Positions 8,845 through 32,000 of a stretch of DNA of 32,000 nucleotides are shown here, piece by piece. The position numbers were made by a program, and so were the translations under genes. The notes under the pieces were generated by a model. That model was not told where the DNA came from and did no database searches. It saw only the letters and a list, made by a program, of their open reading frames with translations. Position 1 is the first letter of the stretch; each line of letters starts with the position of its first letter. The stretch is from Schaalia meyeri (GTDB lineage: Bacteria > Actinomycetota > Actinomycetes > Actinomycetales > Actinomycetaceae): contig NZ_FNLK01000005.1 of assembly GCF_900105015.1 (NCBI RefSeq), forward strand, positions 210,001-242,000. Reading direction: 5' to 3'.

Positions 8845-8849
8845 AAGAG

Positions 8850-10594: not shown

Positions 10595-10620
10595 CACTGC
10601 CGATCCATGTATCGGCAGTG
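10595..10620 (-). terminator. Perfect 10-bp stem-loop downstream of der (possible attenuator or terminator)
   Basis: CACTGCCGAT-ccatgt-ATCGGCAGTG on the + strand, about 50 nt past the der stop. No adjacent U-tract. Confidence 0.3.
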
Positions 10621-10670
10621 ACCGGTGACATCACGCCCTGGCGGGGGAGGAGAGCCCACCGGGCACGCGT

Positions 10671-12221: not shown

Positions 12222-12299
12222 CCGTCCAGTCTACGGCGAGAGGCGCCGCCCGGGCCCAATGGGGCCTGCCAGGCGCGCCAGGACATCGCCTGATGCCTC

Positions 12300-13880: not shown

Positions 13881-13943
13881 AACACCACTGTAGTTCGTCG
13901 CGGCGGCGTCGCGCTCCACACGTCAGGTCGGCGACACAGTAGG

Positions 13944-16532
13944 ATGAGACTCATGCAGATTCTGACACGCGACGAGGCGGCGCATCGCGCGGCCCAGCTG
14001 GACGTATCCGCCATTGACGTCGTCGTTGACGTCCGAGACGCCCAGAAAGAGTCCGTGGCAACCTATCCGGTGAGTTCCACGCTGACGATGACCTCGCGCG
14101 GGGAACGAAGCTTTATCGATATCGCCGGGGAGGTCACGGGAGTATTCCTGAACGGCCAGGCACATGCGTTCGAAGACGACGAGGACCGCGTGTGGGTGAG
14201 CGGCCTGCCCGTGGGGGAGAGCTTCACGCTGGAGATCCGTGCGCTCGCCCGCTACTCGCGCAGCGGCGAGGGATTGCACCGCTACGTCGATCCCGAAGAC
14301 GCGGAGGTGTACCTCTACACGCAGTTCGAACCCAACGATGCCCACCGAGCGTGGCCGTGCATTGACCAGCCCGATGTGAAGCCCGAGTGGACCTTCCACG
14401 TGATCGCGCCCGCGCGATGGGTCGTCTCCTCCAACGGCGCTGAGATTCGGTCTGAGCCGGTCGACGGGGAGGAGGTGGTGCGTCACGACTTCAGCGCAAC
14501 GCGGCCGCTTTCCAGCTACATCACGGCCATCGTCGCCGGTCCGTGGGCGGTCATCGACGGCGGAACGTGGAGCGGCGGTGCCTCCGATGGGGGACACACC
14601 GACTTGGCGCTTCGCCTGCTGTGCAGGCGCACTCTCGCACGCTACCTCGATGCGCAGGATGTTTTCGAAGTCACGCGAGCGGGGCTGGACTTTTATCACG
14701 AGCGCTACGGGGTAACTTTCCCCTGGGGGTCCTACGACCAGATCTACGTGCCTGAATACAACCTCGGAGCCATGGAGAACCCGGGGTGCATCACCTTCAA
14801 CGAAAACTACATTTCCCGCTCGACGCCTACCTTCGCAGAACGGCAGCGTCGCGCGAACACCACGCTCCACGAGATGTGCCACATGTGGTTTGGTGACCTC
14901 GCCACTCCCGCCTGGTGGGACGACCTGTGGCTCAAGGAATCGTTTGCAGAAAATCAGGGGGCCAGCGCGATCGCAACGGCAACGCGCTATGTCGGCGAAT
15001 GGGCGAATTTCGCTATGAACCGTAAAATCTGGGCCTACACGCAAGACCAGATGCCGACGAGACACCCCATCGCGGCCGACATCCCTGACGTCGCCGCGGC
15101 CAAGACAAATTTCGACGGCATCACCTACGCGAAGGGTGCCTCCGTTCTCAAACAGTTGGTGGCGTGGGTCGGACAGGACGCGTTCTACGAAGGAACACGT
15201 CGGTACTTCCAGAAACACCAATTCGGCGCCACGTGCCTCCACGACCTGCTCGAAGCCCTGGAAGAGGCGTCGGGGCAGGAACTGGAAACGTGGAAGAGCG
15301 CATGGCTCGACACATCGGGTCCTTCGACCCTGTTCGCCACCAGAGCCATCGACGGAGCCGGAGCCATCTCGGACTTTACTCTCCACCAGAGCGCTCAAGC
15401 GTGTGGGGGAGTGCTCCGTCCCCACCGCGTAACCGTATCGACGTGGCGTGTGGCCGGGGGAAAGCTGGAACAAACTCGGGTCTTCGATGTGCGCATAGAG
15501 GGGGAGAGGACCTTGATCGACCCCGACGGGGTACTGTCGGGGTCGGGTAGCGCTGCTTTAGTTGACCTCGTCGTCGTCAATGACGATGACCTGACGTACG
15601 CGATCGCCCGGCTGGATGAACGCTCAACGGACGTCGCTCTGGCCTACGTCGCCACCATCGACGCGCCGATCACGCGAGCGGTTGTCTGGGCGTCGCTGTG
15701 GAATGCAGTGCGTGACGGGCTGCTCGATCCGCGCCGCTTCATCGATGCCGTCCTTACCGCCGTTCCCGCGGAGAGGGAACCCACTATCCGCGACCGTCTC
15801 GTCCTGTTCGTCGCGGAAGCCCTGTCGTCGTTCCTGCCCGGACGAGCGCGCGTCGGAGTCCACGACCGCGTGATGGCGACCATGCTTCGCCTGTCGAAGG
15901 AGACGACCGACGCCGATGCCCGGCGCACGTATACGCGCGCCTTCATCGCCGAGTTTTCAGCTCGAGGCGGGGACAACTACGCGGAAACGGTGAAAGGGCT
16001 CGCCTGGGCAGATGACCCTGACATCGCGTGGAGAGCGCGCCGGGCGCTATCGGCGCGGGGAATCGTGCACGAGGAGACGATCGACCAATGGCGTGACGCC
16101 GATGGGTCGGGTGAAGCTGCGCGGATGAGCGCTGAGGCGCTTTCCTCGCTGCCCGAAGAAAGCGCCCGGAGGCGCGCGTGGGAGTCTGTCTATGCAGATT
16201 CGCTGTCGAACGACCTCCTCACCGCGACCCTGGCGGGCTTGCAGGCCTCGTCGTGGGAAGGCGAGTCAGGAGTCGAGACCGCGCTTTCGAGGATACGCGC
16301 CTACTGGGAGACGCACACCATCGGCATGGCGCTGCGCTACGCCAACGGGGTGCTGGCGCTGGGCATCGACATCGACCGCGAGGGCAGCGTCGAACAATCC
16401 GTTTGCCTCCTGCGTTCATGGCTTGAGGAAAACGCAGACGCTCCGGCTCAGCTGCGCCGTATCATCATCGAGCACCTCGACTCGTTCGAGCGCTGCGAAC
16501 GCGTGCAGCGTCGGTGGGAGCAGGAGCAATGA
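13944..16532 (+). CDS. pepN: Aminopeptidase N (M1 zinc metallopeptidase)
   Basis: Motifs GAMENPG, HEMCHMWFGDL (HEXXH), WLKESFAE and the ERAP1-like C-terminal domain. 862 aa. A possible alternative start is ATG 13953. Confidence 0.93.
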   Translation: MRLMQILTRDEAAHRAAQLDVSAIDVVVDVRDAQKESVATYPVSSTLTMTSRGERSFIDIAGEVTGVFLNGQAHAFEDDEDRVWVSGLPVGESFTLEIRALARYSRSGEGLHRYVDPEDAEVYLYTQFEPNDAHRAWPCIDQPDVKPEWTFHVIAPARWVVSSNGAEIRSEPVDGEEVVRHDFSATRPLSSYITAIVAGPWAVIDGGTWSGGASDGGHTDLALRLLCRRTLARYLDAQDVFEVTRAGLDFYHERYGVTFPWGSYDQIYVPEYNLGAMENPGCITFNENYISRSTPTFAERQRRANTTLHEMCHMWFGDLATPAWWDDLWLKESFAENQGASAIATATRYVGEWANFAMNRKIWAYTQDQMPTRHPIAADIPDVAAAKTNFDGITYAKGASVLKQLVAWVGQDAFYEGTRRYFQKHQFGATCLHDLLEALEEASGQELETWKSAWLDTSGPSTLFATRAIDGAGAISDFTLHQSAQACGGVLRPHRVTVSTWRVAGGKLEQTRVFDVRIEGERTLIDPDGVLSGSGSAALVDLVVVNDDDLTYAIARLDERSTDVALAYVATIDAPITRAVVWASLWNAVRDGLLDPRRFIDAVLTAVPAEREPTIRDRLVLFVAEALSSFLPGRARVGVHDRVMATMLRLSKETTDADARRTYTRAFIAEFSARGGDNYAETVKGLAWADDPDIAWRARRALSARGIVHEETIDQWRDADGSGEAARMSAEALSSLPEESARRRAWESVYADSLSNDLLTATLAGLQASSWEGESGVETALSRIRAYWETHTIGMALRYANGVLALGIDIDREGSVEQSVCLLRSWLEENADAPAQLRRIIIEHLDSFERCERVQRRWEQEQ

Positions 16533-17383
16533 CGCACCGGGGCCATCGAGACGAAGCACCGGGGGAGGAACGACAGGTGCCCCGGGCCTCGACCGTGGAC
16601 CCCGCGGCCTCGATGTCCCTGTTGACCTCCCTGCTGGCAAACCCCCTCGATGCGGGCTACGAACACTACCACGCGGACCACAGCTCCCACCCTGCCAGGT
16701 GCATCGAGAAGCTTGCCGTCTTTGTGGTTGCGGCAGCGCTCGGCTTCGGATCAATCGTGGCAACGGCTTGTCTGCGAGGGCCAGCCAGTGACGTGAAGGC
16801 GGACCTGAAGGCCCAGGCATCTGCCCGATCTGACCAGGTGGAAGCGCTGAACGCCGACGTGCAGTCTCTCGGTAGAGCGATCGACCAGCTCTCGCAATCC
16901 GGGGACGCGGCGCCTACCGATAGCGCCCAGGAGATGACGACGGCCACGACCCCGGTATCGGGCCCCGGGATCACTGTCACGTTGACGGATCGCAGCGGTC
17001 CCGGCAGAGGCAGCGGAGCCGTGCGCGATCAGGATCTGGCGATGGTCGTCAACGCGCTGTGGGCCGCAGGTGCGGATGCGATTTCTATCAACGGTCAAAG
17101 GATCGGCCCCGATACCTTCGTGCGCAAGGCGGGTTCCGTTATCCTCGTCAACGTTGCTCCCGTGTCCTCCCCCTATGAGGTCAGCGCCATCGGAGATTCC
17201 AACGCGCTGTCGGTTGCGCTCGTTCGCGGAGCCACCGGCGATTATCTCTCGGCCGCCCAGTCGGTGACCGGCATGAGCGTCTCCACGAAGGTCGTAGCTA
17301 CACTGTCCATGGACGCGCGCGCCCATACCGTCCCCCAATACGCATCCCCGCTGACGTCACCGAACGAAGGAGGTACTCAGTGA
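16529..17383 (+). CDS. DUF881 domain membrane protein (division-associated cluster)
   Basis: Single TM segment, coiled region, then GPGITVTLTD...DQDLAMVVNALWAAGADAISINGQRIGP...SPYEVSAIGD, typical of DUF881. The ATG at 16529 forms an ATGA overlap with the pepN stop and follows GGAGCAGGAG. Confidence 0.8.
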   Translation: MTHRGHRDEAPGEERQVPRASTVDPAASMSLLTSLLANPLDAGYEHYHADHSSHPARCIEKLAVFVVAAALGFGSIVATACLRGPASDVKADLKAQASARSDQVEALNADVQSLGRAIDQLSQSGDAAPTDSAQEMTTATTPVSGPGITVTLTDRSGPGRGSGAVRDQDLAMVVNALWAAGADAISINGQRIGPDTFVRKAGSVILVNVAPVSSPYEVSAIGDSNALSVALVRGATGDYLSAAQSVTGMSVSTKVVATLSMDARAHTVPQYASPLTSPNEGGTQ

Positions 17384-17712
17384 TCGCCGTCATCGGATTG
17401 ATCATCGGCATAGTTTTCGGCGTGCTCCTTGACCCCACGGTTCCGGCATGGCTGACGCCGTTTTTGCCCGTCGCGGTTGTCGCCGGGCTTGATGCCCTCT
17501 TCGGCGCCGGGCGCGCGTGGCTTGAGGGTCGTTTTGCCGACCGTGTGTTTGTCACATCGTTCTTTTGGAACGTCGTCGTCGCATGCCTCCTTGTTTTCCT
17601 GGGCACTCAGCTCGGAGTGGGGTCCGCGATGACCACGGCCGTGGTCGTAGTTCTGGGAATCCGCATCTTCTCCAATACCGCATCGATCCGTCGATTGCTG
17701 CTGAAGGCGTGA
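17380..17712 (+). CDS. Small basic family protein (DUF1290)
   Basis: 110-aa multi-TM protein sandwiched between two DUF881 genes, the conserved actinobacterial arrangement. GTGA overlap with the upstream gene. Confidence 0.8.
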   Translation: MIAVIGLIIGIVFGVLLDPTVPAWLTPFLPVAVVAGLDALFGAGRAWLEGRFADRVFVTSFFWNVVVACLLVFLGTQLGVGSAMTTAVVVVLGIRIFSNTASIRRLLLKA

Positions 17713-17713
17713 C

Positions 17714-18514
17714 ATGAGCGAGAAGACGAACGAAGAGATCCCCGCCGTCCACGAGGATCGAACCGCCCATCGCGGCGATGACGCGAAGGGTGAGACACGC
17801 GGTGGGAAACACCTGTGGGAGCGAGCGAGGGGAGCGTTTTTTGCGCTTCCACGGGGGCTGCATGCCGTCATACTCATCATCTTTATGATTCTCGGGTTTG
17901 CGCTGGCCACTCAGGTTCGCGCCCAACGCTCCGACCCTCTCGAGGGGCTGTCCGAGCAGGATCTCGTGACGGTCCTCGACGAGCTGGGAACTCAGGAGCA
18001 GAATCTGCGGACAAAGCGCGGGGAGCTCGCCCGCGAGCTGGAGGATCTGCAGGGCGCAGCTGACGAAGCAGACGCTCGTGAACAGGCGTCACGAAAGGCC
18101 GCGCTCCAAGCGCAGATAGCGGCGGGAACCATCCCCGTACACGGCCCCGGCGTATCGGTCAGCGTCGCGGACCCCGGCGCGAATCTGACCCCCACTCAGT
18201 TCGTGATAACGCTCGGGGAACTGCGCAACGCGGGAGCTGAGGCCATCGAGCTCAACGGGGTGCGCCTGTCGACGCGGTCGGCGTTTACGGGACAAGCCGG
18301 AGCGATCAACGTCGATGGCACCGCCATCTCTTCGCCGTACACGTGGAACGTCATCGGTGAGTCACAGACGATCGCGACAGCGCTCGACATTCAGGCCGGA
18401 TCGGCGGCACAGATGAGGGCCAAGGGAGCGGTTGTCAGCATCACGCCGAGCAAGGATATCGAGATCCGCTCTGTCGCCACCCCGCGCGCGCCCCAGTACG
18501 CGACATATGACTGA
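17714..18514 (+). CDS. DUF881 domain membrane protein (second copy)
   Basis: TM segment, coiled coil, then HGPGVSVSVADPG...ITLGELRNAGAEAIELNGVRLSTRS...SPYTWNVIGE. Confidence 0.8.
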   Translation: MSEKTNEEIPAVHEDRTAHRGDDAKGETRGGKHLWERARGAFFALPRGLHAVILIIFMILGFALATQVRAQRSDPLEGLSEQDLVTVLDELGTQEQNLRTKRGELARELEDLQGAADEADAREQASRKAALQAQIAAGTIPVHGPGVSVSVADPGANLTPTQFVITLGELRNAGAEAIELNGVRLSTRSAFTGQAGAINVDGTAISSPYTWNVIGESQTIATALDIQAGSAAQMRAKGAVVSITPSKDIEIRSVATPRAPQYATYD

Positions 18515-18524
18515 GCGCCCCACG

Positions 18525-18530
18525 TATAAT
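18525..18530 (+). promoter_or_regulatory. Candidate -10 element (TATAAT) for the FHA gene
   Basis: A perfect TATAAT sits in a GC-rich spacer, 88 nt upstream of ATG 18618. The -35 (cGACAt, 18-nt spacing) is weak. Confidence 0.3.
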
Positions 18531-18617
18531 GGGCGAGGAAGTCACCGTGCCCGCGCCTGACGGATGGTGAACGTTTACACTTGTCCCAGTCACCGAAATC
18601 ACCGTTTGGAGCGCACA

Positions 18618-19052
18618 ATGTCTGACAATCAACAGTTCGACCCCACTGCAACCTCCATCTTTGGCATGACGCCTGTAACGGAGGACGCCGAAGAGGCACC
18701 CGTCGCGCTGTCCGCTCGTGATCGCGAGGCCGTGGAAGCCCTGCCCGCAGGTTCGGCTCTGCTTATCGTGCAGCGCGGGCCCAATACCGGTGCGCGTTTC
18801 CTTCTCGATCCCGAGGTAACGAATGCCGGTCGATCACCGAAGGCCGACATCTTCCTTGACGACGTTACCGTGTCGCGTAAGCACTGCCAGTTCATCGCCT
18901 CCGGCGGCGGCCACATCGTGCGCGACTCCGGTTCCCTCAACGGAACCTATGTGAACCGTGAGCGCGTCGACTCGGTTGAATTGCACCCGGGAGACGAGGT
19001 GCAGATCGGGAAGTACCGACTGACGTACCAGCCCTCAACCAAGCATGCCTAG
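18618..19052 (+). CDS. garA: FHA-domain regulator, GarA/OdhI family
   Basis: A threonine-containing N-terminal peptide (FDPTATSIFGMTPVTED) is followed by the FHA domain: GARFLLDPEVTNAGRSPKADIFLDDVTVSRKHCQF...DSGSLNGTYVNRERV. GGAG lies 7 nt upstream of ATG 18618. Confidence 0.88.
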   Translation: MSDNQQFDPTATSIFGMTPVTEDAEEAPVALSARDREAVEALPAGSALLIVQRGPNTGARFLLDPEVTNAGRSPKADIFLDDVTVSRKHCQFIASGGGHIVRDSGSLNGTYVNRERVDSVELHPGDEVQIGKYRLTYQPSTKHA

Positions 19053-19821
19053 CGTGTCTGCTGCCGTTGCACGCGTGCGTCGATCCGATTCCGCTGCGGA
19101 ATCGATCTCGTGGCCACACGATGTCGATCACGCGCCCGAGCTGTCGATTGGTCGGGTCGTCGACGCCCTGAAAGAAGAGTTCCCCGCGATCTCACTGTCC
19201 AAGGTGCGCTACCTGGAGAGCGAGGGGCTCGTGTCTCCCGCACGCACGGGTGCCGGATATCGGAAGTACTCCGCCGCGGATATCGAACGTCTGCGTTATG
19301 TGTTGACCGAGCAGCGGGACTCGTTCACTCCGCTGAGTGTGATTCGCGCTCAGCTTGATGCGCTCGATGCTGGCCATTCGCCCGCGAGGCGCCGCGTTGC
19401 GCAGATGGTGTCCTCGGAGGGGCAAACTGTGTCCCTTGGCGGACGGCGGGCCATTCCGGCAGGTGATCTTTCGGATCTGACCGGTGTGGACATGGATGCT
19501 CTGGAGCGCTACACCCGCCTCGGACTGATCACGCCTGACCTGGCCGGCTATTTCCCCTCGCGGTGTGTTCAGGCCGTATCGACGATCGCACGCCTGGAAT
19601 GCGCGGGAGTTGACGTGCGCGTTCTGCGCGCGGTGCGTCAGGGCGCGGAGCGCAGTGCGGATATCATCGATCAGGCGGTGTCCTCGCAGCGAGGACGAGG
19701 CCGGGGAGCGGATCGGGAGCGGGCGCGCGCGCGCGCGATCGAGCTTGGTGATCTGTTCGCTGAGCTGCACCGGGACATGTTGACTGTTGCCGTGTCGGCG
19801 CTGGCCGACGAAGACGACTAA
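19045..19821 (+). CDS. MerR-family transcriptional regulator (position equivalent to corynebacterial FtsR / Mtb Rv1828)
   Basis: HTH segment LSIGRVVDALKEEFPAISLSKVRYLESEGLVSPARTGAGYRKYSAADIERLRYVL. Directly downstream of the garA homologue and overlapping it by 8 nt. Confidence 0.8.
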   Translation: MPSVSAAVARVRRSDSAAESISWPHDVDHAPELSIGRVVDALKEEFPAISLSKVRYLESEGLVSPARTGAGYRKYSAADIERLRYVLTEQRDSFTPLSVIRAQLDALDAGHSPARRRVAQMVSSEGQTVSLGGRRAIPAGDLSDLTGVDMDALERYTRLGLITPDLAGYFPSRCVQAVSTIARLECAGVDVRVLRAVRQGAERSADIIDQAVSSQRGRGRGADRERARARAIELGDLFAELHRDMLTVAVSALADEDD

Positions 19822-19863
19822 CTCTCATGTTCAGCATGAAGGTTAGACTCGCCGGGACGATCG

Positions 19864-19892
19864 TTGACCGCCGTGCGTCGGTGCTCTACCGT
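19864..19892 (+). promoter_or_regulatory. Candidate sigma-A-type promoter for the second merR gene
   Basis: TTGACC - 17 nt - TACCGT (TANNNT). It lies about 40 nt upstream of GTG 19934, which is preceded by AAGGAG. Confidence 0.35.
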
Positions 19893-19933
19893 AGTCCTGT
19901 TCTCACCAAGTACCACCCACAAGGAGCCCCACA

Positions 19934-20488
19934 GTGAGTGCAGAAGCGAACGCCGCCGCACCGAGGCAAGGCATGCTTTTTGGCGATCCGCTCGAGGGAC
20001 TCGATACGGATGAAATGGGTTATCGCGGCCCTGTTGCGTGCAGCGCTGCCGGCATCACGTACCGCCAGCTGGACTACTGGGCCAGAACGGGTTTGCTGCA
20101 GCCTTCTATCCGCGCCGCCCGCGGGTCGGGCTCCCAGCGTCTCTACTCTTTCCGCGACATCCTCGTCCTGAAGGTAGTCAAGAAGCTGCTCGACGCGGGT
20201 GTGTCGCTGCAGCAGGTGAGGGTAGCTGTCGCGTCTCTCCAGCACCAGGGAGTGGACGATCTCGCTGCCATCACGCTCATGAGCGATGGCGCTTCCGTCT
20301 ACGAATGCACGTCGACGGATGAAGTTATCGACCTTCTACAGGGCGGACAGGGGGTTTTCGGCATCGCGGTCGGCCGCGTTTGGCGTGAAGTCGAAGGCTC
20401 TCTTGCCGAGCTTCCACTCGAACGCCCCGGGCGGGTGTTCGTTGATGAGCTGGCGGAGCGACGTCGTTCCAAGCGCTCAGCGTCCTAA
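19934..20488 (+). CDS. MerR-family transcriptional regulator (Rv1830-like)
   Basis: CSAAGITYRQLDYWARTGLLQPSIRAARGSGSQRLYSFRDILVLKVVKKLLDAGVSLQQVR. AAGGAG RBS 7 nt upstream of the GTG. Confidence 0.8.
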   Translation: MSAEANAAAPRQGMLFGDPLEGLDTDEMGYRGPVACSAAGITYRQLDYWARTGLLQPSIRAARGSGSQRLYSFRDILVLKVVKKLLDAGVSLQQVRVAVASLQHQGVDDLAAITLMSDGASVYECTSTDEVIDLLQGGQGVFGIAVGRVWREVEGSLAELPLERPGRVFVDELAERRRSKRSAS

Positions 20489-20498
20489 TGTGAGCCGT

Positions 20499-20544
20499 AT
20501 GGGTGTGGGGACCGGATCGAATTCGATCCGGTCCCCACACCCAT
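20499..20544. terminator. Perfect 46-bp palindrome (23-bp arms) between convergent genes; probable bidirectional terminator
   Basis: ATGGGTGTGGGGACCGGATCGAA|TTCGATCCGGTCCCCACACCCAT with no mismatch and a GAATTC centre. It begins 11 nt after the merR stop and ends 27 nt before the Hsp70 gene stop. No U-tracts. Confidence 0.6.
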
Positions 20545-20570
20545 TGACAGGGGGCTGCGCGGCCTTGGAA

Positions 20571-22085
20571 CTATTGGCGCCCGAGGGGCCGCCTGATCGT
20601 GAATGCGGCCTCCAGGTCGGTGATTTCCACACTCACCATCCCGTTCGCATCAACGATGTAGGCCTCTTCGATGAGGGGGCCATCCTCCGTGCGAACCACG
20701 GGAATCGATGCGATGTCAATGTCGCTGCGGTGCAGGTTGGGGTCGAAGGGGAAGATGACTTCCCCGTACGGCTGCAGATCCCCGCGTGGCACCCCGGCCT
20801 CGTCGAAGGATGAGTACTCAACGAAGCGGAAGTGTCCAATGTTGTGAGCTGCACGATATCGGCGCTTGATCGTCAGGGCCTGACCGGGAGCCAGTTCCGT
20901 GTTGGGCTCAAGGAGTGTGTCGAACGAAATGAGGTTACCGGCCTCACGCTCACGGAAGACTCCGAGGCCTCGAGAAAGCTGCTCGCGCACCGTGTACGCC
21001 GCTTCGGGATCGGCTCCGATGGCCAGTCCGATCGCGGTAGACGCAGCCGTGTGGGGCGAACGATGAACCCGGCGTCCGAAACGGGAACGCAAGACCCTGG
21101 CAACGAGAGGCAGCTGAGAACCGCCACCTACCACGTAGAGCCCCGCGATATCGCCGCCAAGCTTGCTCGTGCCCGACGCGTCGGGCACGAGGAGGGGTTC
21201 CATCGCTTTCACCGTTGCCTCGACCAGGGGAGTGCAGGCGTCATAGAAGCTGGCGACCGTGATTGTGACGGGCTCTCCATTAACGGGTACCGTGATGAAC
21301 TTCGTGGAAGGGGAGAGCGTTTCCTTTGCGGTGCGGGCATCTTCCAGCAGCCGCTGCCACGCGGCGTCCCCCAGCTTTCCCGAATCGGTTTTGGCGGCTG
21401 CGGCCAGGCAGTTGGCGAGCACCGTGTCAAAGTCATCCCCGCCGATCATGTTCAGACCGCGCGAACCCATGACCTCGTGCAGCGTTCCGGTTGCCGAGAC
21501 GATGGAGGCATCGAATGTGCCGCCGCCGAGGTCGTAGACGAGGATTGCGGTTCGCTTTGAATTGAGCGTGCCGGCGTGGCGGTGCGTGTACTCGAAGCCG
21601 GCCGCTGACGGTTCGTTAACCATGGCGAGCACGTCCCAGCCCGCACGCCGGAAGGCCTCGAGAGTGAGGAAACGCTGGGCAGACCACGCGTGGGCGGGAA
21701 CGCCGACCAGCGCCTCCAGGGGCTCGGATGCGGGCAATAGGGAGACGGAGGAGTTGGTGCGCAGCTGATGGGCCACGTAGCTAAGGAAGCCCGTCAGCGC
21801 GTCCAGGATGGAGATGCTGTGATTTCCCAGCCGAAACGTCGAGGCGTCAGTGACGGACGCATCCGACAGCAGTCGCTTGAAGGAGCGAAGGTGGAGGGCT
21901 CCGTCGCGCGCGGCGTCTTCGGCGTCGAAGCCGTACACCAGTCGGTCGCCATCAAGGGCGAGTACAGACGGAATGAAATCGATGGTATCGTCCTGATTGT
22001 TAATAAAAGAGACGATCGGATAGTTCCCCCGATCGACGATAGCGATCGCTGTGGTCGTGGTGCCAAAATCAACTCCGAGTCTCAT
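20571..22085 (-). CDS. Non-canonical Hsp70-family ATPase (YegD/HscC-like, short substrate-binding region, no lid)
   Basis: Motifs MRLGVDFGTTTTAIAIV, AMVNEPSAAGFEY, VYDLGGGTFDASIV and LYVVGGGSQLPLV match the actin/Hsp70 nucleotide-binding domain. Only about 120 residues follow it. No dnaJ or grpE nearby. Start chosen at ATG 22085; the ORF opens at 22106. Confidence 0.85.
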   Translation of the reverse strand: MRLGVDFGTTTTAIAIVDRGNYPIVSFINNQDDTIDFIPSVLALDGDRLVYGFDAEDAARDGALHLRSFKRLLSDASVTDASTFRLGNHSISILDALTGFLSYVAHQLRTNSSVSLLPASEPLEALVGVPAHAWSAQRFLTLEAFRRAGWDVLAMVNEPSAAGFEYTHRHAGTLNSKRTAILVYDLGGGTFDASIVSATGTLHEVMGSRGLNMIGGDDFDTVLANCLAAAAKTDSGKLGDAAWQRLLEDARTAKETLSPSTKFITVPVNGEPVTITVASFYDACTPLVEATVKAMEPLLVPDASGTSKLGGDIAGLYVVGGGSQLPLVARVLRSRFGRRVHRSPHTAASTAIGLAIGADPEAAYTVREQLSRGLGVFREREAGNLISFDTLLEPNTELAPGQALTIKRRYRAAHNIGHFRFVEYSSFDEAGVPRGDLQPYGEVIFPFDPNLHRSDIDIASIPVVRTEDGPLIEEAYIVDANGMVSVEITDLEAAFTIRRPLGRQ

Positions 22086-22118: not shown

Positions 22119-22865
22119 CTAGGACCGTCTTACGGGACGTTCCCACTTTCCGCGATCACATGCCCTGTGGGCGAGGGTGACAAAAAGCCAAGCGAACAGG
22201 AAGTACGCAAATCCTGCGATGGCATCCACAATGTAATGGTTGCCCGTTGCGACGATTGTCACGATTGTCAGTGTCGGGTGCGCGGCGAGCAGGAGCCTGG
22301 CCCACCACGAACGCCACACGTAGGTGCCGAGCATGAACGCGACCCACATCGACCAGCCTGTGTGCATGGAGGGCATCGCGCCGTATGGGTTGGCGAGCGT
22401 GCCGAACAGCTGGGAGTAGGAGGACGTGTGTTGGGCGACGGCGTCGACGATTCCAAATTCGTTGACGAGGCGCGGAGGAGCCAGGGGATAGGTCCAATAC
22501 GTTACCAGCGCGCCGATCGTCATGACCACGAGCGTCCAACGAGCCCGTGAGTAGAGGGTGGGCGCCTTGATCCACAGGGCCAGCATCGCCAGCCCCGTGG
22601 CGAGAAAGAACGAGACCGCGTACTGCATCGAAGCCAGCGAAGCAACGGTGGGATGCGCTGCCAGCCAGGCGTTGGCGTCCGCCTCAACGAACAGGCCAAC
22701 GTATTCCTCGAGGCGGGCGATCGTGTGGGCGTGTGCGACCGCGACCTCCTTGGTGGCGGGTGCAAGAAACGACAAAACCGAGTAGGCCATGCATGCGAAG
22801 GTGAGTCCGACGACTTCGCGAATGGCGTGTGGCCTGCGTGAGGATAGGGGCTTGTCCGACGTCAT
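22119..22865 (-). CDS. PAP2-superfamily integral membrane enzyme (PAP2_3 / Aur1-sphingomyelin-synthase-like subgroup)
   Basis: About 6 TM helices. Motifs PSMHTGWS and TGNHYIVDAIAG (HxxxD) correspond to PAP2 motifs C2 and C3 in the lipid phosphotransferase-like variant. Confidence 0.75.
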   Translation of the reverse strand: MTSDKPLSSRRPHAIREVVGLTFACMAYSVLSFLAPATKEVAVAHAHTIARLEEYVGLFVEADANAWLAAHPTVASLASMQYAVSFFLATGLAMLALWIKAPTLYSRARWTLVVMTIGALVTYWTYPLAPPRLVNEFGIVDAVAQHTSSYSQLFGTLANPYGAMPSMHTGWSMWVAFMLGTYVWRSWWARLLLAAHPTLTIVTIVATGNHYIVDAIAGFAYFLFAWLFVTLAHRACDRGKWERPVRRS

Positions 22866-22911
22866 GGGTGTAACTGTAGCCGTGTGGGTGAAGGGAGCGT
22901 TAACGGAAAAA

Positions 22912-22939
22912 ATCGGACATAATGTACATTATCGGATCG
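22912..22939 (-). other. dif: Candidate dif site (XerC/XerD chromosome dimer resolution site)
   Basis: The minus strand reads CGATCCGATAA-TGTACA-TTATGTCCGAT. Against E. coli dif (GGTGCGCATAA-TGTATA-TTATGTTAAAT) it matches 6/11, 5/6 and 8/11 positions, including the invariant ATAA...TTATGT. The core ATAATGTACATTAT is a perfect 14-bp palindrome. The site is AT-rich in a GC-rich intergenic spacer. Gene orientation to its right is almost entirely minus-strand. Confidence 0.55.
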
Positions 22940-22990: not shown

Positions 22991-22996
22991 TAGAAT
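22991..22996 (+). promoter_or_regulatory. Candidate -10 element (TAGAAT) for rbpA
   Basis: TAGAAT lies 34 nt upstream of ATG 23031, which is preceded by GGAGG. No convincing -35 at 17-18 nt. Confidence 0.3.
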
Positions 22997-23030: not shown

Positions 23031-23396
23031 ATGGCTGACCGCGCATTGCGTGGCATGCAGATCGGCGCCAAGTCCCTCGAGTCCGAGGACGGCGTCGTCT
23101 TCGCAGATCGTTTCGTCGTCCGTTACCTGTGCCCGAACGGACACGAGTTCGAGGTAACGCTCTCCAGCGAGGCGACCGCGCCCGCAAACTGGGAATGCAA
23201 GTGCGGCCAGTCCGCCGAGCTTATCGGCGAAACTGAGGAAGACGAGGAATGCAAGCCCGTGAAGCCGCAGCGCACCCACTGGGACATGCTGCTTGAGCGC
23301 CGCTCGATCGAGGAGCTTGAGGTCGTTTTGAGCGAGCAGCTGACCGTGTATCGCGAGGGGCGACTGCGCCCCGAAGGCCACTACCGCAAGGGCTAA
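23031..23396 (+). CDS. rbpA: RNA polymerase-binding protein RbpA
   Basis: MADRALRGMQIGAKSLESEDGVVFADR...YLCPNGHEFEVTLSSEATAPANWECKCG...PQRTHWDMLLERRSIEELE is the actinobacteria-specific RbpA core and sigma-interaction domain. Confidence 0.92.
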   Translation: MADRALRGMQIGAKSLESEDGVVFADRFVVRYLCPNGHEFEVTLSSEATAPANWECKCGQSAELIGETEEDEECKPVKPQRTHWDMLLERRSIEELEVVLSEQLTVYREGRLRPEGHYRKG

Positions 23397-24178
23397 CACG
23401 AACGGAACGGCGCGCGTGCGGCCTGGGCTAGACGGCTCAGGCCGCCCTTTGTCACCATTGCCAGTTCCTCGACAAAAATCGATGAATCGAGCTTCGATTC
23501 GCCGGCGATGCGTTCGTCGAAAGTGATAGGCACCTCGCGAATTACCGCGCCCAAGGACCGTTCGAGCTCGGTCATCTCGACCTGGAAACCGAATCCCGTA
23601 GTCGAGACGCGCCCCAGGACGCCGTGTGCGACCAGGAAGGAAGCACGATGAACGCGCAGGCCCGCAGTCGCGTCACGAACGGGCGTTCCGAGGCAAAATC
23701 GGACATAATAATTGCCCGCCTTCGAGAGAGCGACGCGTTTAGCCGACCAGCCATTGACCCTCCCGCCGCGTACCCACCGGGAACCAATCACCAAGTCAGG
23801 ATGATCGGGGCCGGACATTCGTGTCAACAATTTGGGCAAGTCGACCGGACGATGCGAACCGTCCGCATCCATCTGCAGCAGGAACGGGTAGGCGTGCTCC
23901 ATGCCCCACCCCATGCCGTCGACGTAGGCGGTTGCCAGGCCTGATTTCGCCGGACGGTGGAGAACGTGAAGTCGAGCCTCCCCCGCGCATCGTTCGTCAA
24001 CCCACTCCCCCGTGCCATCCGGGGACGAGTCATCGACGATGAGTACGTGAGCGTTCGGGACCTGCATCCACACTTCCTTCAGAACGGCTGGTAGCGTCGA
24101 CATTTCGTTATAAGTGGGGATCACGATCAGCGTGTGATCGCCAATTGGCGAGGGAGCGGGATGCGCGGAATCAGTCAT
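23393..24178 (-). CDS. ppm1: Polyprenol-phosphate mannose synthase (GT2), separate catalytic polypeptide
   Basis: LIVIPTYNEMSTLPAVLKEV...VLIVDDSSPDGTGEWV...LQMDADGSHRP. Lies immediately downstream of lnt, as in species where Lnt and Ppm1 are not fused. Start ambiguous (24178, 24187 or 24214). Confidence 0.85.
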   Translation of the reverse strand: MTDSAHPAPSPIGDHTLIVIPTYNEMSTLPAVLKEVWMQVPNAHVLIVDDSSPDGTGEWVDERCAGEARLHVLHRPAKSGLATAYVDGMGWGMEHAYPFLLQMDADGSHRPVDLPKLLTRMSGPDHPDLVIGSRWVRGGRVNGWSAKRVALSKAGNYYVRFCLGTPVRDATAGLRVHRASFLVAHGVLGRVSTTGFGFQVEMTELERSLGAVIREVPITFDERIAGESKLDSSIFVEELAMVTKGGLSRLAQAARAPFRSC

Positions 24179-24204
24179 GAGCCACATTTTGCATGTTTTG
24201 AGGA

Positions 24205-25815
24205 TCACTCGCACGCGCTGTTCGGGAAAGCCGATACCCGCCCGCGCGCGAGTCCTGCCAGGGATACCGCGACAAGCAGCACAGTGAGCGCCATCAAGGC
24301 GATCGGAATATGCTCGCCAGCGCGAGCTGTGACAGTCAATGACGAGCGCAGCGGTATGTCTGCCACCACAGTGGCAACCTGTTGAGTAGCCGTCGAAGCG
24401 AGCACCGAACCGTCGGGGCGAATCACGTACGAGTGTCCGGTCGTTGACGCCTGGATGGCGCTGCGCGAATACTCCATTGCGCGCATGCGCAGCAGCTGCC
24501 CCTGCTGAGCGGACTCTCCCGATGAGCGGAAATGGTAGTTGTTCGACGGGGTGACGATGGCCTGTCCGCCCAGGCCAACACCCGCTGCGATGACCGTTGG
24601 ATACCCTGCTTCAAAACAGATTCCGACAGCGAGCGGAACTGTACGACCATCGCGCGCGACCACGTCCATGCGGGGAGGCTCCTCCCCCGCTTCCATGTCC
24701 CTGCTGGACTGAGCCACTTCCGTGGCAAAGGAGGAAATGTAGCCCCGGAACGGGATGAATTCACCAAAGGGCACGGGCACGTGCTTGGAATAACGCAATG
24801 CCTCGTCCATGCCGGTGCCGACCTCCCACAGGGCAAGCCAGTTTTTCACGCGATTGCGCTCATTGATATTCGTGTAGCCCATGAGGATCGGCGCATCGAC
24901 GGCACGAGACGCAGTTTCGATGCTCTTTGCCACATCGGGAAAGGCTGCCGGGTCGCGGTCGACGGATCCTTCGCCCCAGATTGCCAGATCGATAGGATTG
25001 CCTGTCGTTGCTGGGTCCTTCGCCAGCTGCAGCGTTGCGCGCATGTTGTTGCCCGTGACCTCCCCCCGTCGTTTATAGGCCTGCGCTCCCGGCAGCGCGA
25101 TATCACCCTGCACGATCCCCACGCGGAGCAGGCCTTCTTCTGCCCGATTCGACAGCGGGATTGCCGCTGGAGCCACGTAACAAACGGCCAGGACTACGGC
25201 CAGGAAGGGACGCGAGAACCAGCGCTCGGCGTGACTGGAGGCGTCGCGGCGAGCAAACATGCGGCGGAGAAGTACCGCGCAGAACACCACGACAGTGGTA
25301 ATCACCGACGTTCCTCCGTAGGGGGCCAGGTGGCCAAGCGGCGAATCAACCTGAGGGAGGGCAACCGACCCCCATGGGAAACCCGACCATGGCCAGCGCA
25401 AGCGCACCGCATCAACACCCGCCCAGGAGACGGCGTACACGAGCGCCTGCACGAGTGGCCCGCGAGCCCAGGGCCACAGTTGCGTCCACCGCACGAAGAC
25501 CACCCATAGGAGCAGAAAAAGGGTCTGGACAAAGGCCAGCACAAACCACGCCGGCCGCGATCCCACGGCGAGAAAAACCCAATCAATAAGGGGAAGCCAC
25601 ATGCTCATCCCGAATATGAAGGTAACCGTCAGGGCGTGAAGAGAACGGGCCTCGTCGATGCGGGAGATATAGAGTGTCAGCGCGGGCACCGACAGCCACC
25701 ACCAGCCCAGCGGGGGAAACGACGCGTACAGTGCCAGGCCAGCGACGGCCGCAACCAATGTATCCCCGCACACATGAGCGAGGGACGCGCGTTTCAAAAT
25801 TTCTCGATGCCCCAC
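24205..25815 (-). CDS. lnt: Apolipoprotein N-acyltransferase
   Basis: Multi-TM N-terminal half plus a CN-hydrolase domain (VGIVQGDI..., WGEGS, VGICFEAGYP). GTG 25815 has GGAGG 5 nt upstream and avoids overlap with helY. The ORF opens at 25899. Confidence 0.88.
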   Translation of the reverse strand: MGHREILKRASLAHVCGDTLVAAVAGLALYASFPPLGWWWLSVPALTLYISRIDEARSLHALTVTFIFGMSMWLPLIDWVFLAVGSRPAWFVLAFVQTLFLLLWVVFVRWTQLWPWARGPLVQALVYAVSWAGVDAVRLRWPWSGFPWGSVALPQVDSPLGHLAPYGGTSVITTVVVFCAVLLRRMFARRDASSHAERWFSRPFLAVVLAVCYVAPAAIPLSNRAEEGLLRVGIVQGDIALPGAQAYKRRGEVTGNNMRATLQLAKDPATTGNPIDLAIWGEGSVDRDPAAFPDVAKSIETASRAVDAPILMGYTNINERNRVKNWLALWEVGTGMDEALRYSKHVPVPFGEFIPFRGYISSFATEVAQSSRDMEAGEEPPRMDVVARDGRTVPLAVGICFEAGYPTVIAAGVGLGGQAIVTPSNNYHFRSSGESAQQGQLLRMRAMEYSRSAIQASTTGHSYVIRPDGSVLASTATQQVATVVADIPLRSSLTVTARAGEHIPIALMALTVLLVAVSLAGLARGRVSAFPNSACE

Positions 25816-25831
25816 TGAAACCTCCAGGCTC

Positions 25832-28597
25832 TTAGATGGTGGTCCAGGAAACGATACCGCGTCCGATGCGGTTCTTCGCTGCCTGAGCTGTGCGAGCAAG
25901 ATCGGAGGAAGGCACAGCGGAGGCGATCTGCCCCAGGCAATCCATGACTTGTCGCATCCACCGGACGAAGTCGCCGGCCTGTATCTGTGTGCCGTCGATT
26001 GCGGTAGCGAGCGTCGAGCCGTGAGCCCACGCCAGCGTTGCGGCCATCAGACCAGCGTCCATACCCGGCGTCGGATCCAAACCGCAGTGCTTCTCCACGC
26101 GATGCACTCGTTCGAGTGTGCCCATGCACTCGTCCCAAGCCGTGCGCAGCCGGATGCTTACGCCCGAGGGGGTGAGCTCGCATGCGTCGTCATCGCTGTG
26201 CGAATCGTAGACGAGGGCGGATACCAACGCCGCCAGTTCCGCTTCGTTCAGGCCTTCCCACGCGCCTTCGTCGATCGACATAGCGATCACGAGGTCGCGC
26301 TCGCCAAAAACACGGCGGAGCCGCTCGCCCGACTCGGTCACGCGGTCGCCATCGAGGAAACCAAGCCGCTCAAGGACCGCGCAAACTCGGTCAAAGTGCA
26401 CGGCAACCGAACCGGTCTGTGCGTCAATCTGCGTTCTTAGACGGTCGATCTCACGACTCACGTGCGCCCATCGAGCACCCGCCCTGGCGTGTTCCTCTCG
26501 GTGAGGGCATCGGTGGACCGGATGAGAACGCATGGCTGCACGCAGATCCGAGATCGGATCGCGGTCCGGGGAGCTGTCGTGGGCGAGAGCGAAACGTCCC
26601 TTGGCGCGGCCCGATCGGAGCTCCCCCGCGATACGGGTGCGTTCCTTCGTGCGGCGCAATGCTGACCCACCCGGAATCGACAGGTGTCCGACGACGGCGA
26701 TACCGCCGCGGATGTCCTCCGGTGCGAGGGAGCGCCACGTGCCGTCCTCTCCGATGATACAGACCTCGACTCGGCCCGAGGCCGTGGTCGCCTGCGCGCC
26801 GACAACGCACAGGCGGTGCTTGTGCCCGCGAGTGAGCGCGAGAACGTCTCCGGTGCGTACGCTCTCGAGCACGCGTCGTGATTCCTCGCGCCGCTCGCGC
26901 TTGCGTGCGCGCGCACCCGACTTTTCTGCCTGGCTGATTCGATCACGCAGCGTCAGGTACGCGCGCACGTCACCGCGTGAACACGACAGGTCCTGGGCGG
27001 CGTCGTCGCGCTGCGCTTCAAGCTCCGTCAGCCGCGACGCGAGTTGTACGACGGCAGCGTCAGCCTGGAACTGAGCGAAAGAGGACTCCAGAACCCTGCG
27101 AGTGAGGGAACGCGTCGACCTGGCCAGGAGGTTGACGACCATGTTGTAGGTCGGCGTGAACGCCGAAATCAGCGGATAGGTACGCTTTGAGGCCAGCGCC
27201 GCCACCTCTTCGGGCGCCACTCCCCCGCGATGCGACACGATCGCATGCCCCTCCGTGTCGATTCCCCGACGCCCGGCACGGCCAGACAGCTGCGTGAACT
27301 CGCCCGCGGACAGTGACACGTGTGCTGATCCGTTCCACTTTGTGAGCGATTCGATGACGACGGTTCGCGCGGGCATATTGATACCAAGGGCCAGGGTCTC
27401 CGTCGCATAGACCATCTTGACCAGGCCCGCTGAGAAGAGATACTCGACGGTCTCTTTCATGAGAGGGAGCATTCCCGCATGGTGGGCCGCGATCCCGCGC
27501 ATGAGCCCCCGTTTCCAGGAATCGACCCCGAGCACGGTGGCGTCCTCCGGGGCAATCGCCGTGATGGCCTCGTCAACGTAGCGCTCGATCGTGGCTGCCT
27601 CGGATCGGGTTGTCAGGGTGATGCGCGTCGCGAGAACCTGACGTACGGCGTCTTCGCAACCGGCTCGCGAGAAGATGAAAGTGATCGCCGGTAACAGGTG
27701 CGCACGATCAAGAGAAACGAGCGTTGATGGGCGCGACTCTCGGCCCCCGATGCCGCTGCGGTTCCACGAACGCGATCCACGCCCGCCCCTCATGCCTGAG
27801 TCGTTTGTCGCTGCAACCAGCCGCGGGTTGAGCTTGTGCTTCCCGCTTGGCGCGTATAGGTCGAAGATCTTCTCACCGACGATCATGTGCTGGTAGAGAG
27901 GAACAGGTCTGTCTTCGGACACGATGATTTCGCAGGTGGAGCGGACTTCTCGGATCCATGCACCGAACTCTTCCGCGTTAGACACCGTCGCAGACAACGC
28001 GATGATCGCCACGTGGGCGGGGAGGTGAATGATCACTTCCTCCCACACGGGACCGCGCGTGCGATCCGCGAGGTAGTGGACCTCGTCGAGGACGACAACG
28101 CCGAGATCGTTGAGGGGAGCGCCCGCGTAGATCATGTTGCGGGCGACCTCGGTCGTCATGACCACAATGGGAGCACCGGGATTGACGGACGTGTCTCCCG
28201 TTGCCAATCCGACGTTGTCGTCCCCGTAGAGTTCGCGCAACTCCAGGTACTTCTGATTCGAGAGAGCCTTAATCGGTGTCGTATAAAAGGCGCGCATGCC
28301 TCGCTCAAGCGCGACAAAAGCACCGAATTGGCCCACGATTGTCTTTCCGGCACCCGTAGGAGCGGCGACGAGAACGGAGCTTCCAGTCTCGAGGGCGTCG
28401 AGTGCCTTAATCTGGAAGGGATCGGGAGTGAAGCTGAGTCCGGCCACCCACCGGGCGCGCAGCGAGGAGGCGGCGCGAAGCTGCGCCTTGTAAGCGGCGT
28501 AACGCTGTGCGGCGCTTCCCTCTCCCACGCCGATACGCTCCTCGTGCTCCGCCCGGTCAGTCTCGCGGGCGCGGTGCCTGCGTCGTTGCGGGCTCAC
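25832..28597 (-). CDS. helY: Ski2-like DExH-box RNA helicase HelY
   Basis: Motifs VAAPTGAGKT (motif I), VVLDEVHYLAD (DEVH), SATVSN and HHAGMLP, plus a C-terminal DSHCT-like region. GTG 28597 overlaps the pafC stop (GTGA) and follows GGGAGGAG. Confidence 0.9.
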   Translation of the reverse strand: MSPQRRRHRARETDRAEHEERIGVGEGSAAQRYAAYKAQLRAASSLRARWVAGLSFTPDPFQIKALDALETGSSVLVAAPTGAGKTIVGQFGAFVALERGMRAFYTTPIKALSNQKYLELRELYGDDNVGLATGDTSVNPGAPIVVMTTEVARNMIYAGAPLNDLGVVVLDEVHYLADRTRGPVWEEVIIHLPAHVAIIALSATVSNAEEFGAWIREVRSTCEIIVSEDRPVPLYQHMIVGEKIFDLYAPSGKHKLNPRLVAATNDSGMRGGRGSRSWNRSGIGGRESRPSTLVSLDRAHLLPAITFIFSRAGCEDAVRQVLATRITLTTRSEAATIERYVDEAITAIAPEDATVLGVDSWKRGLMRGIAAHHAGMLPLMKETVEYLFSAGLVKMVYATETLALGINMPARTVVIESLTKWNGSAHVSLSAGEFTQLSGRAGRRGIDTEGHAIVSHRGGVAPEEVAALASKRTYPLISAFTPTYNMVVNLLARSTRSLTRRVLESSFAQFQADAAVVQLASRLTELEAQRDDAAQDLSCSRGDVRAYLTLRDRISQAEKSGARARKRERREESRRVLESVRTGDVLALTRGHKHRLCVVGAQATTASGRVEVCIIGEDGTWRSLAPEDIRGGIAVVGHLSIPGGSALRRTKERTRIAGELRSGRAKGRFALAHDSSPDRDPISDLRAAMRSHPVHRCPHREEHARAGARWAHVSREIDRLRTQIDAQTGSVAVHFDRVCAVLERLGFLDGDRVTESGERLRRVFGERDLVIAMSIDEGAWEGLNEAELAALVSALVYDSHSDDDACELTPSGVSIRLRTAWDECMGTLERVHRVEKHCGLDPTPGMDAGLMAATLAWAHGSTLATAIDGTQIQAGDFVRWMRQVMDCLGQIASAVPSSDLARTAQAAKNRIGRGIVSWTTI

Positions 28598-29529
28598 GAC
28601 GGCTCCTCCCGCATCCAGACGGACAGAATGCGGCGCGCCCGCTGCGCCGCCTCGACGCGCATATCGGGGTAAGCCGCGCGCAGGTGGTGCGCAATGTCGA
28701 TAAGGAGACTGAGCCCCCACTGCTCATTCCATACCGGGAGCACAATGCGCGCTCCCCCGTCGTCCAATTCAGCGTTGATCGATCCTCCGTACTCGTCCGC
28801 GATCCATCGGGCATCCCGATCGACGTCAAGCGTCCACGTCGATGATTCCTCGCGCATCTTGCGCGGAACCTGGACACGTCTGCCAACCGCGCGAATGTTG
28901 CCCATCGAGGATGCGGCGAAGCTGCGCGGTGCCCCTGCATCCGCGCACCAGCCCCGCAGGAGCCAGCCGGTCGCGGTCGCTTCGAGGAACCAGGGATCAA
29001 CGACGCGATGCGATGATTTGCCCCCGGTGGACACGTAATCGAACTCCACGCGCTGTTCACGGGTCAGTGCGTCGCGTAGCTGCACGATGACGTCGGACGA
29101 GGCCCTGGCGCGTGATGCTTCCACGCTCTCCCCGCTCGCGGTCTCCCCCAAACCCCCCAAAGACGATATGACAAGAGCCGCGTGAGGAAGGTGACCGATC
29201 AGCTCCGGTCCCACAAGCGGCGCGATTGCAGACAACCCGATGAGCAGGGCCTGCGCCTCCGGCTCAGAGAAACGCAATGGAGCCGACGCTCCCATGGTCG
29301 AGCGCAGCGAGATGCGCTGCTCGGTCTCAAAAAGTTCCCAGTCGATCTCGAAGGACGCGCCGGGCAGAGAATCGCCGACCGACGCCAAATACTCGATATC
29401 ACGTCGAACCTGGCGGCGAGTGCGATGAAAGTGCGCGCCCAGCTCGTCCACGCCCACTCCCGGATGCTCGCCGATCCACGCGACCATTGAAGCCAGGCGA
29501 ACGACGGCGAGTTGCACGGTTTCAGGCAT
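28594..29529 (-). CDS. pafC: HTH-WYL-WCX transcriptional regulator, PafC-like
   Basis: N-terminal HTH (VGVDELGAHFHRTRRQVRRDIEYL). WYL region (RVEFDYVSTGGKSSHRVVDPWFLEATATGWLLRGW). Second gene of a paired WYL regulator operon. Confidence 0.8.
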   Translation of the reverse strand: MPETVQLAVVRLASMVAWIGEHPGVGVDELGAHFHRTRRQVRRDIEYLASVGDSLPGASFEIDWELFETEQRISLRSTMGASAPLRFSEPEAQALLIGLSAIAPLVGPELIGHLPHAALVISSLGGLGETASGESVEASRARASSDVIVQLRDALTREQRVEFDYVSTGGKSSHRVVDPWFLEATATGWLLRGWCADAGAPRSFAASSMGNIRAVGRRVQVPRKMREESSTWTLDVDRDARWIADEYGGSINAELDDGGARIVLPVWNEQWGLSLLIDIAHHLRAAYPDMRVEAAQRARRILSVWMREEPS

Positions 29530-30463: not shown

Positions 30464-30505
30464 ACCCTACGTCCAACGCGGGCCTCCCACGGACGCGGCG
30501 CACCG

Positions 30506-31555: not shown

Positions 31556-31567
31556 GGGGATTCTCCT

Positions 31568-32000
31568 TCACTGCGTGATGTCGTAACGTCTCGACCGCTC
31601 GATCCTGTACACGATGATGTAGAGCATCGTCGCCATCACGCACAAAATTGCGATAACGACGAACATTCCGGCGGTGTCCACGTTGCTTCTCATTTGAGTG
31701 AGTACCTGCCCGAGTCCGGCCCCGCCCATCACCATCTCGCCCACGACGGCGCCCGTCACTGACAGCGCGAAACCGTTGCGCAGCCCACCGAGAATGGCGT
31801 GTGCTGCCAACGGAATCTCCATCTGCGTGGCCATAGTCCATCCGGTTGCCCCGTCGAGGGCCGCCGCTTCGAGGAACTCGCGGTTGATGTGCCGCAAACC
31901 GACGACGGTGGAGACCAGAATCGGGAAGAAGACAATGAGCGCGCAGAGCGCGATGACAGAGGTCATGCCGTACCCGACCCACAGGACTAACACGGGGGCG
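31568..32000 (-). CDS. ABC transporter permease (NitT/TauT family), C-terminal part; 5' end off the window
   Basis: The EAA-like loop REFLEAAALDGATGW and the C-terminal TM helices. The reading frame is open to the window edge. Confidence 0.75.
   Translation of the reverse strand, partial: APVLVLWVGYGMTSVIALCALIVFFPILVSTVVGLRHINREFLEAAALDGATGWTMATQMEIPLAAHAILGGLRNGFALSVTGAVVGEMVMGGAGLGQVLTQMRSNVDTAGMFVVIAILCVMATMLYIIVYRIERSRRYDITQ

Follow-up and report, generated by a model that had tools for sequence, protein, structure and literature searches.

The question raised by this locus is whether a 28-bp sequence lying between two divergent genes of Schaalia meyeri, for a PAP2-family phosphatase and for the RNA polymerase-binding protein RbpA, is the chromosomal dif site of this organism, as an earlier note on the same DNA had proposed, or a sequence with some other role. 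The analysis covers a window of 32,000 nt (the whole stretch of DNA under study), with an extension on its right side. We consider it very probable that the 28-mer is the chromosomal dif site of S. meyeri. This identification, already put forward in the earlier note, is sustained by a lineage-typical 11-6-11 layout matching known dif sequences, by the uniqueness of the site in the DNA scanned, by its conservation in relatives, by a local switch in chromosome polarity and by the presence of an XerD-like gene in the same window. The S. meyeri dif thus belongs to a well-known class and does not represent new biology.

The 28-mer and its likeness to published dif sites

On the plus strand, positions 22912-22939 read ATCGGACATAATGTACATTATCGGATCG, and the reverse complement is CGATCCGATAA-TGTACA-TTATGTCCGAT; the central positions 22919-22932 (ATAATGTACATTAT) equal their own reverse complement and form a perfect 14-bp palindrome. 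Sequence, coordinates and palindromic core had all been given exactly in the earlier note. An inverted-repeat search returned no report for the site because the arms of the palindrome are only 7 bp each, and the palindrome was confirmed by reading the sequence. The layout is that of dif (Table 1): two partially inverted 11-bp arms flank a 6-bp centre, and the inner bases of the arms, ATAA and TTATG, are conserved. The TTATGTC of the putative XerD arm recurs in the large majority of the actinobacterial dif predictions listed; in a minority, TTATGTA or TTATGTT takes its place.

Table 1. Position, strand and assignment of the predicted dif site, its parts and the features that surround it.
Feature	Position in the window	Strand	Remarks
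Predicted dif site, 28 bp	22912..22939	-	reads CGATCCGATAA-TGTACA-TTATGTCCGAT
Putative XerC-binding arm	22929..22939	-	CGATCCGATAA; assigned by analogy with E. coli dif
Central region	22923..22928	-	TGTACA; 11-6-11 layout, predicted strand-exchange region
Putative XerD-binding arm	22912..22922	-	TTATGTCCGAT; assigned by analogy
PAP2-family phosphatase gene, left neighbour	22119..22865	-	Pfam PAP2_3, E=8e-40; transcribed away from dif
rbpA (RNA polymerase-binding protein), right neighbour	23031..23396	+	Pfam RbpA; transcribed away from dif
Xer-family tyrosine recombinase, most likely XerD	1661..2857	+	Pfam Phage_integrase and Phage_int_SAM_1
RGGGGAG, left arm	112..21315	12 plus : 1 minus	point toward dif
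RGGGGAG, right arm	23978..32000	8/9 minus in the window; 12/13 minus out to 41.5 kb	point toward dif
Likely rbpA -10 element, TAGAAT	22991..22996	+	conserved alignment block with invariant T positions
Likely PAP2 -10 element, TACAGT	22873..22878	-	7 nt before the PAP2 ATG

The spacer that holds the 28-mer is 165 nt long and has 53% G+C. The description of the site as its most AT-rich patch holds for the site taken together with an adjoining A-run: the AT-richest 28-nt intervals (20/28 A+T) start at 22905-22907 and span both, the 28-mer itself having 17/28. The start codon of the PAP2 gene, the same 248-aa gene that is called in public assemblies, ends at 22865 and leaves 46 nt to the site, within one base of the 47 nt noted before; on the other side, rbpA is preceded by an AGGAGG ribosome-binding site. 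The window aligns in reverse orientation with chromosome CP066065.1 with 0 mismatches over 30.5 kb. An identical RbpA protein is encoded by two complete S. meyeri chromosomes, CP066065.1 (2.03 Mb) and CP012072.1, the latter from Schaalia (formerly Actinomyces) meyeri W712 (2.05 Mb, 65.5% G+C). The site occupies positions 739,937-739,964 of CP066065.1 and 712,773-712,800 of CP012072.1, and in strain W712 the flanks differ from those of the window but the site does not.

The E. coli and B. subtilis dif sequences quoted in the earlier note are the correct ones; the E. coli site is identical to the 28-mer at 19/28 positions, with the same 11-6-11 layout, and the B. subtilis site at 17/28. Resemblance is closer within the Actinobacteria. 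The predicted dif of Corynebacterium aurimucosum (TTGTCCGATAATGTACATTATGTCAGAT) shares 24/28 positions and the same 28-bp layout, that of C. efficiens 23/28, and the Bifidobacterium prediction (TCCGATAATGTACGTTATGTCAGAT, from B. animalis) 23/25, again with the same 28-bp layout; the end of the XerD arm reads CGAT in S. meyeri and AGAT in the Corynebacterium and Bifidobacterium predictions. The Frankia alni dif is identical at 21/28 positions. Mycobacterial dif sites, identical at 19-20/28, follow the same phylum-level consensus, CCGATAA-N6-TTATGTC, but have GCGACA or GCTACA at the centre where S. meyeri has TGTACA. The B. animalis dif sits 0.02-0.04 degrees from the GC-skew shift point (Kono et al. 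2011 supplement), the M. bovis dif is placed at 2,211,556 (Kono et al. 2011), and mycobacterial dif sites of the same consensus support Xer-mediated excision in vivo (10.1101/758037). The dif of M. tuberculosis and M. smegmatis serves in Xer-cise marker excision.

The reference sites were those of the supplement to Kono et al. 2011 (BMC Genomics 12:19), where dif was predicted, with sequences given, in all 66 Actinobacteria examined, a set without any Schaalia or Actinomyces genome. A position weight matrix made from 29 in-register, non-redundant published actinobacterial predictions scores the site at 30.6 bits. Second in the window comes the opposite strand of the site itself (-0.55), the best other site reaches -7.9 and the window background stands at -64.5 +/- 13, placing the site about 7 standard deviations over background; within the window, the matrix scan recommended in the earlier note thus returns this site first and by a wide distance. 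Its score falls slightly under the range of the matrix-building sites themselves (32.9-50.9 bits) because both arms depart from those sites in their four outermost bases. In the XerD arm these are CGAT, as against the commonest actinobacterial AAGT or AGAT, and among the matches listed from the relatives examined below the CGAT variant is shared only with the S. odontolytica group (7/118 loci). The 18-base core occurs a single time in the window, even at three mismatches, with 0.01 matches expected from dinucleotide-preserving shuffles.

Chromosome polarity around the site

Over the DNA covered, the site sits where the two chromosome arms meet, and both the base skew and the strand of the heptamer RGGGGAG reverse there. 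GC skew in 1-kb bins is positive throughout positions 1-23,000, save for two weakly negative bins, and negative or near zero beyond; the sign changes within about 0.5 kb of the site, and cumulative G-C reaches its maximum at 23,435. The right flank was lengthened by 9.5 kb from CP066065.1, bringing the chromosome covered to about 41.5 kb. Skew amounts to +0.052 on the left and to -0.011 to -0.019 on the right, the value of -0.011 being that of the extended flank, a difference with p<1e-4 by block permutation on the extended sequence. Of 74 related loci among the matches listed, 61 have a higher skew on the left than on the right (p=1e-8). At third codon positions the skew is -0.013 in plus-strand genes of the left arm, -0.173 in minus-strand genes of the same arm and -0.067 in minus-strand genes of the right arm, weakening beyond 32 kb. 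The right-arm value lies between the expectation for a terminus (-0.013) and that for replication through the locus (-0.173), nearer to the former, though not cleanly so.

Gene direction follows the same pattern. To the right, minus-strand genes account for 8.5 kb of the window (8.6 kb in the earlier note), the sole exception being the 0.37 kb of rbpA; in all, fifteen consecutive genes spanning 17.3 kb converge on the site from this side. To the left, plus-strand genes predominate as had been claimed, with 12.3 kb, but the 9.6 kb attributed to minus-strand genes was too high, our count being 6.7 kb.

The strongest local signal of the junction is the polarity of RGGGGAG. Its switch of strand is bracketed by positions 21,309 and 23,978 (Fisher exact p=3.3e-5), and two of the left-arm copies lie on the template strand of a minus-strand HSP70-like gene. 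The same polarity is apparent in 932 kb of pooled flanks from 120 other genomes, among the matches listed. In these flanks GGGGGAG exceeds every other 7-mer in polarity, with 363 copies pointing toward dif and 5 away, AGGGGAG is the second most polar (244:6), and the strand bias of RGGGGAG exceeds 98%, while heptamers of similar composition are far less skewed (GGGGGTG 33:36, GGGGGCG 73:70, GAGGGGG 63:32). Predicted genes directed away from dif carry the motif 0 times on the coding strand and 59 times on the template strand, and homology-confirmed genes of this kind 0 and 18 times, respectively. The bias hence follows the chromosome arm and not transcription. It is present in each of the groups considered, namely Bifidobacteriaceae, Actinomycetaceae, Cellulomonadaceae/Demequinaceae, Nanopelagicales and Corynebacterium. 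Over-representation of RGGGGAG is only 1.3-1.4-fold.

Taken as a local statement, the reading of this locus as the terminus is borne out by the change in skew, by the 17.3 kb of convergent genes and by the flip of RGGGGAG. The further claim that the site fixes the terminus was overstated, because dif marks the polarity junction of the chromosome, a junction that usually, but not always, coincides with the end point of replication (PMC13342612). A structural hallmark described for the FtsK-XerCD system is that polar motifs reverse at dif (PMC13342612); over the DNA covered, skew and RGGGGAG both reverse here. Along CP066065.1 the site falls at 36% of the length and along CP012072.1 at 35%, two records that differ in start point and orientation. 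Such a position would imply arms of unequal length if the records began at dnaA; as they start at different points, it is uninformative and not contradictory. Elsewhere dif is found at 50.4% of the complete record in Scardovia wiggsiae and at 39%, 8% and 95% of other complete records, values that likewise depend on the start of each record.

Conservation of the site and alternative readings

For the survey of relatives, one genome per species was searched for CCGATAATGTACRTTATGTCMGAT, yielding at least 120 stretches with a match. The 24-base core is found once in each of these actinobacterial stretches, and the matches listed include Bifidobacteriaceae, Actinomycetaceae, Demequinaceae, Cellulomonadaceae, Corynebacterium, Nanopelagicales and others. 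As the relatives were retrieved by the core pattern, identity inside the pattern is a matter of construction; the independent evidence of conservation is the constant setting of the site and its contrast with the flanking DNA. Both are pronounced. In 12 aligned Actinomycetaceae spacers the block TCCGATAATGTACATTATGTC[C/A]GAT is invariant, and the flanks can barely be aligned in the more distant members, so that the comparison of orthologous spacers proposed in the earlier note comes out in favor of dif. Over 118 loci, among the matches listed, conservation drops to background right outside the 28-mer, and within it the outer four bases of the XerC arm are poorly conserved, with columns 1-4 at only 43-68%. 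The central region of the relatives reads TGTACA, or TGTACG with a change in the first base of the next arm.

The setting is defined above all by rbpA. A protein search with the proteins of the window detects an RbpA homologue in 96 of 120 stretches at a median distance of 0.9 kb, among the matches listed; RbpA lies within 3 kb of the site in 30 of the 34 stretches with at least 3 kb on both sides, and on the XerC-arm side in 92 of the 96, with the same limit to the matches listed. Sites with the core in Bifidobacterium and Corynebacterium genomes also adjoin rbpA. Several families share, among the matches listed, the gene order MerR-family gene, dif, rbpA, (ppm1, lnt), helY, and the same neighbourhood occupies positions 19934-28720 of the window. 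Between families that share only 40-60% identity in RbpA the core is exactly the same, and it is kept at the orthologous position. The earlier note had held that a dif site would explain local rearrangements, but the neighbourhood is unusually well conserved and not rearranged. The linkage of dif and rbpA suggests an ancient and stable terminus neighbourhood. In M. tuberculosis and M. smegmatis, dif presumably lies tens of kb from rbpA and not adjacent to it.

The window has several other features. Just left of the terminus junction lie genes for an OdhI/GarA-like FHA protein (18564-19052, plus strand) and for an FtsR-type MerR regulator (19045-19821, plus strand; NCBIfam NF050798, 239 bits), which adjoin two DUF881 genes and one DUF1290 gene in a conserved actinobacterial cluster related to cell division. 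The otherwise unannotated gap at 7.9-9.2 kb contains a tRNA-Pro gene (anticodon GGG; 8768-8844, plus strand), and none of the open reading frames listed for this gap matches a Pfam family, so that they are probably spurious.

The alternative that survives best, although we consider it very unlikely, is that the 28-mer is a secondary Xer site, such as the junction of a dif-integrating mobile element, and that the functional dif lies elsewhere. Our scans reached 41.5 kb of a 2.03-Mb chromosome, and Bifidobacterium margollesii does possess two dif-like sites on different contigs. Nonetheless, the matrix finds no second dif-like site in the window and there is no second 24-base core in the DNA out to 41.5 kb; conserved housekeeping genes stand on both sides, and neither integrase nor phage genes adjoin the site; the position is the one that dif occupies in many other genera; and the polarity switch falls at the 28-mer itself. 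The two B. margollesii sites lie at 7558-7581 and 1648-1671 of their respective stretches, with unrelated flanks, and the one on a 2.3-kb contig has the A variant followed by a hairpin. The site on this small contig may belong to a plasmid, to an integrated element that makes use of Xer or to a fragment of the assembly. For S. meyeri, a plasmid Xer site of the cer/psi type, which has about 180 bp of accessory sequence, was also considered and rejected because the window is identical to a 2.03-Mb chromosome and the flanks of the site are freely diverging promoters of housekeeping genes.

Slightly less probable still is the notion that the palindrome serves as a transcription factor operator for the divergent PAP2 and rbpA promoters and resembles dif by coincidence. 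The setting would suit such an operator: the 14-bp palindrome is perfect, the spacer holds divergent promoters, and the site is separated by 46 nt from the start codon of PAP2 and by 52 nt from the probable -10 element of rbpA (TAGAAT). The promoter elements themselves were drawn from conservation in the Actinomycetaceae spacer alignment alone, a sigma-70 consensus scan of the spacer having returned no promoter. The likely PAP2 -10 element, TACAGT, is conserved as TACAGTTACACCCATG in the S. odontolytica group, and its distance to the ATG suggests that the PAP2 mRNA may be leaderless; such a start would put dif upstream of the core promoter, at about -47 to -74. The operator reading is nevertheless at odds with most of the evidence. 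What is conserved is the asymmetric, dif-typical 24-28-mer, not the palindrome alone. Bifidobacteriaceae and further groups carry this sequence in stretches that, as far as read, yielded no PAP2 homologue and that have rbpA 1-2 kb off or inverted; it also matches dif predictions across the phylum regardless of the neighbouring genes. An operator would, moreover, leave unexplained why skew and polar motif both reverse here. A chance AT-rich palindrome without function, for which only the shortness of the motif speaks, is opposed by the shuffle expectation and by the distance of the matrix score from background, and is effectively refuted by the exact conservation of the core across families.

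Interference of Xer binding with PAP2 or rbpA transcription, as raised in the earlier note, is speculative. Other families carry the same dif in quite different spacers, and there is for this reason no evidence that dif is coupled to regulation in a conserved manner. In the S. meyeri spacer itself, a block upstream of rbpA (22960-23010, plus strand; GTTCCGCTTGACGTGTCGGATAGAATGAATCCGTTTC) is kept across S. meyeri and the S. odontolytica group. A TTGACG lies only 7 nt from TAGAAT, so that the two do not form a standard -35/-10 pair, and a call for a terminator-like hairpin overlaps the block.

Predicted recombination at the site and its wider meaning

The identification of the 28-mer as dif is accompanied by a plausible recombinase. 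The window encodes one Xer-family recombinase (1661-2857), with the catalytic domain of tyrosine recombinases and an N-terminal SAM-like domain, in an intact gene that lies about 20 kb from the site and is not mentioned in the earlier note; the window holds no xerC, and the roughly 41.5 kb covered hold no ftsK. The open reading frame of the recombinase as called is an upper bound, since homology begins near residue 84, at about position 1910. The protein scores 344.8 bits against the NCBIfam model NF001399 for the Xer subfamily (cut-off 279), and it scores higher with the XerD model (318.9) than with the XerC model (291.9), each value being just under the cut-off of its own model. Among solved structures its best match is E. 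coli XerD (1A0P, E=6e-55), with which the conserved active-site regions ATGxRVSE, HxLRH and LGH...IYT align. The gene heads a cluster composed of xerD, parA-like, scpA, scpB, rluB, tyrA and cmk, an arrangement known around xerD in other Actinobacteria.

In the dif/XerCD/FtsK system of E. coli, as here, base skew and a G-rich polar motif reverse at the site, and the homologue of E. coli XerD is the recombinase just described. By this analogy we infer the assignment of recombinases to arms, the dependence on FtsK and the part of RGGGGAG as a guide motif. XerC would bind the 11 bp of CGATCCGATAA and XerD the 11 bp of TTATGTCCGAT. The closing septum would hold an FtsK pump that, as in E. coli, reads polar motifs and travels toward dif from both sides, and its arrival at the site would activate XerD. 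With the two sites of a dimeric chromosome paired, the enzymes would then swap strands in turn at the edges of TGTACA, and a dimer arising from an odd number of crossovers between sister chromosomes would be resolved into two monomers at cell division.

The polar motif involved would not be that of E. coli. KOPS (GGGNAGGG) and RGGGGAG are alike in being short, G-rich, strand-biased and inverted at dif, but they differ in sequence. In the DNA covered KOPS shows no skew (2:1) and the B. subtilis motif (GAGAAGGG) stands at 3:0, both being too rare to inform. The strong bias of RGGGGAG, its inversion at dif and its independence of gene direction are the properties expected of a motif that imparts architecture to the chromosome, and make it a candidate FtsK-orienting (KOPS-like) or Chi-like motif. 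A Chi-like recombination hotspot motif would show a similar polarity. We therefore put forward only tentatively, and with somewhat less than even confidence, that RGGGGAG might be the equivalent of KOPS in a large part of the Actinomycetota, with Bifidobacteriaceae, Actinomycetaceae, Cellulomonadaceae, Demequinaceae and probably Corynebacterium among them. A limited literature search retrieved nothing relevant on actinobacterial KOPS or on GGGGGAG, and we do not claim the motif as new.

A dif site is where the arms of a chromosome meet, and once annotated it offers a fixed mark against which Schaalia assemblies can be oriented and inversions assessed. The 28-mer could also serve directly for Xer-based marker excision, a procedure that works in mycobacteria, in S. 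meyeri, an oral commensal and pathogen. More generally, the by-products of the analysis, that is, the polarity of RGGGGAG in five actinobacterial groups and the linkage of dif and rbpA, could matter more than the site itself. If RGGGGAG does orient FtsK, the guide motif of the high-GC Gram-positives, for which our literature search found no published sequence, would become directly testable, and selection for its polarity would explain why dif and rbpA have stayed linked in one orientation across families.
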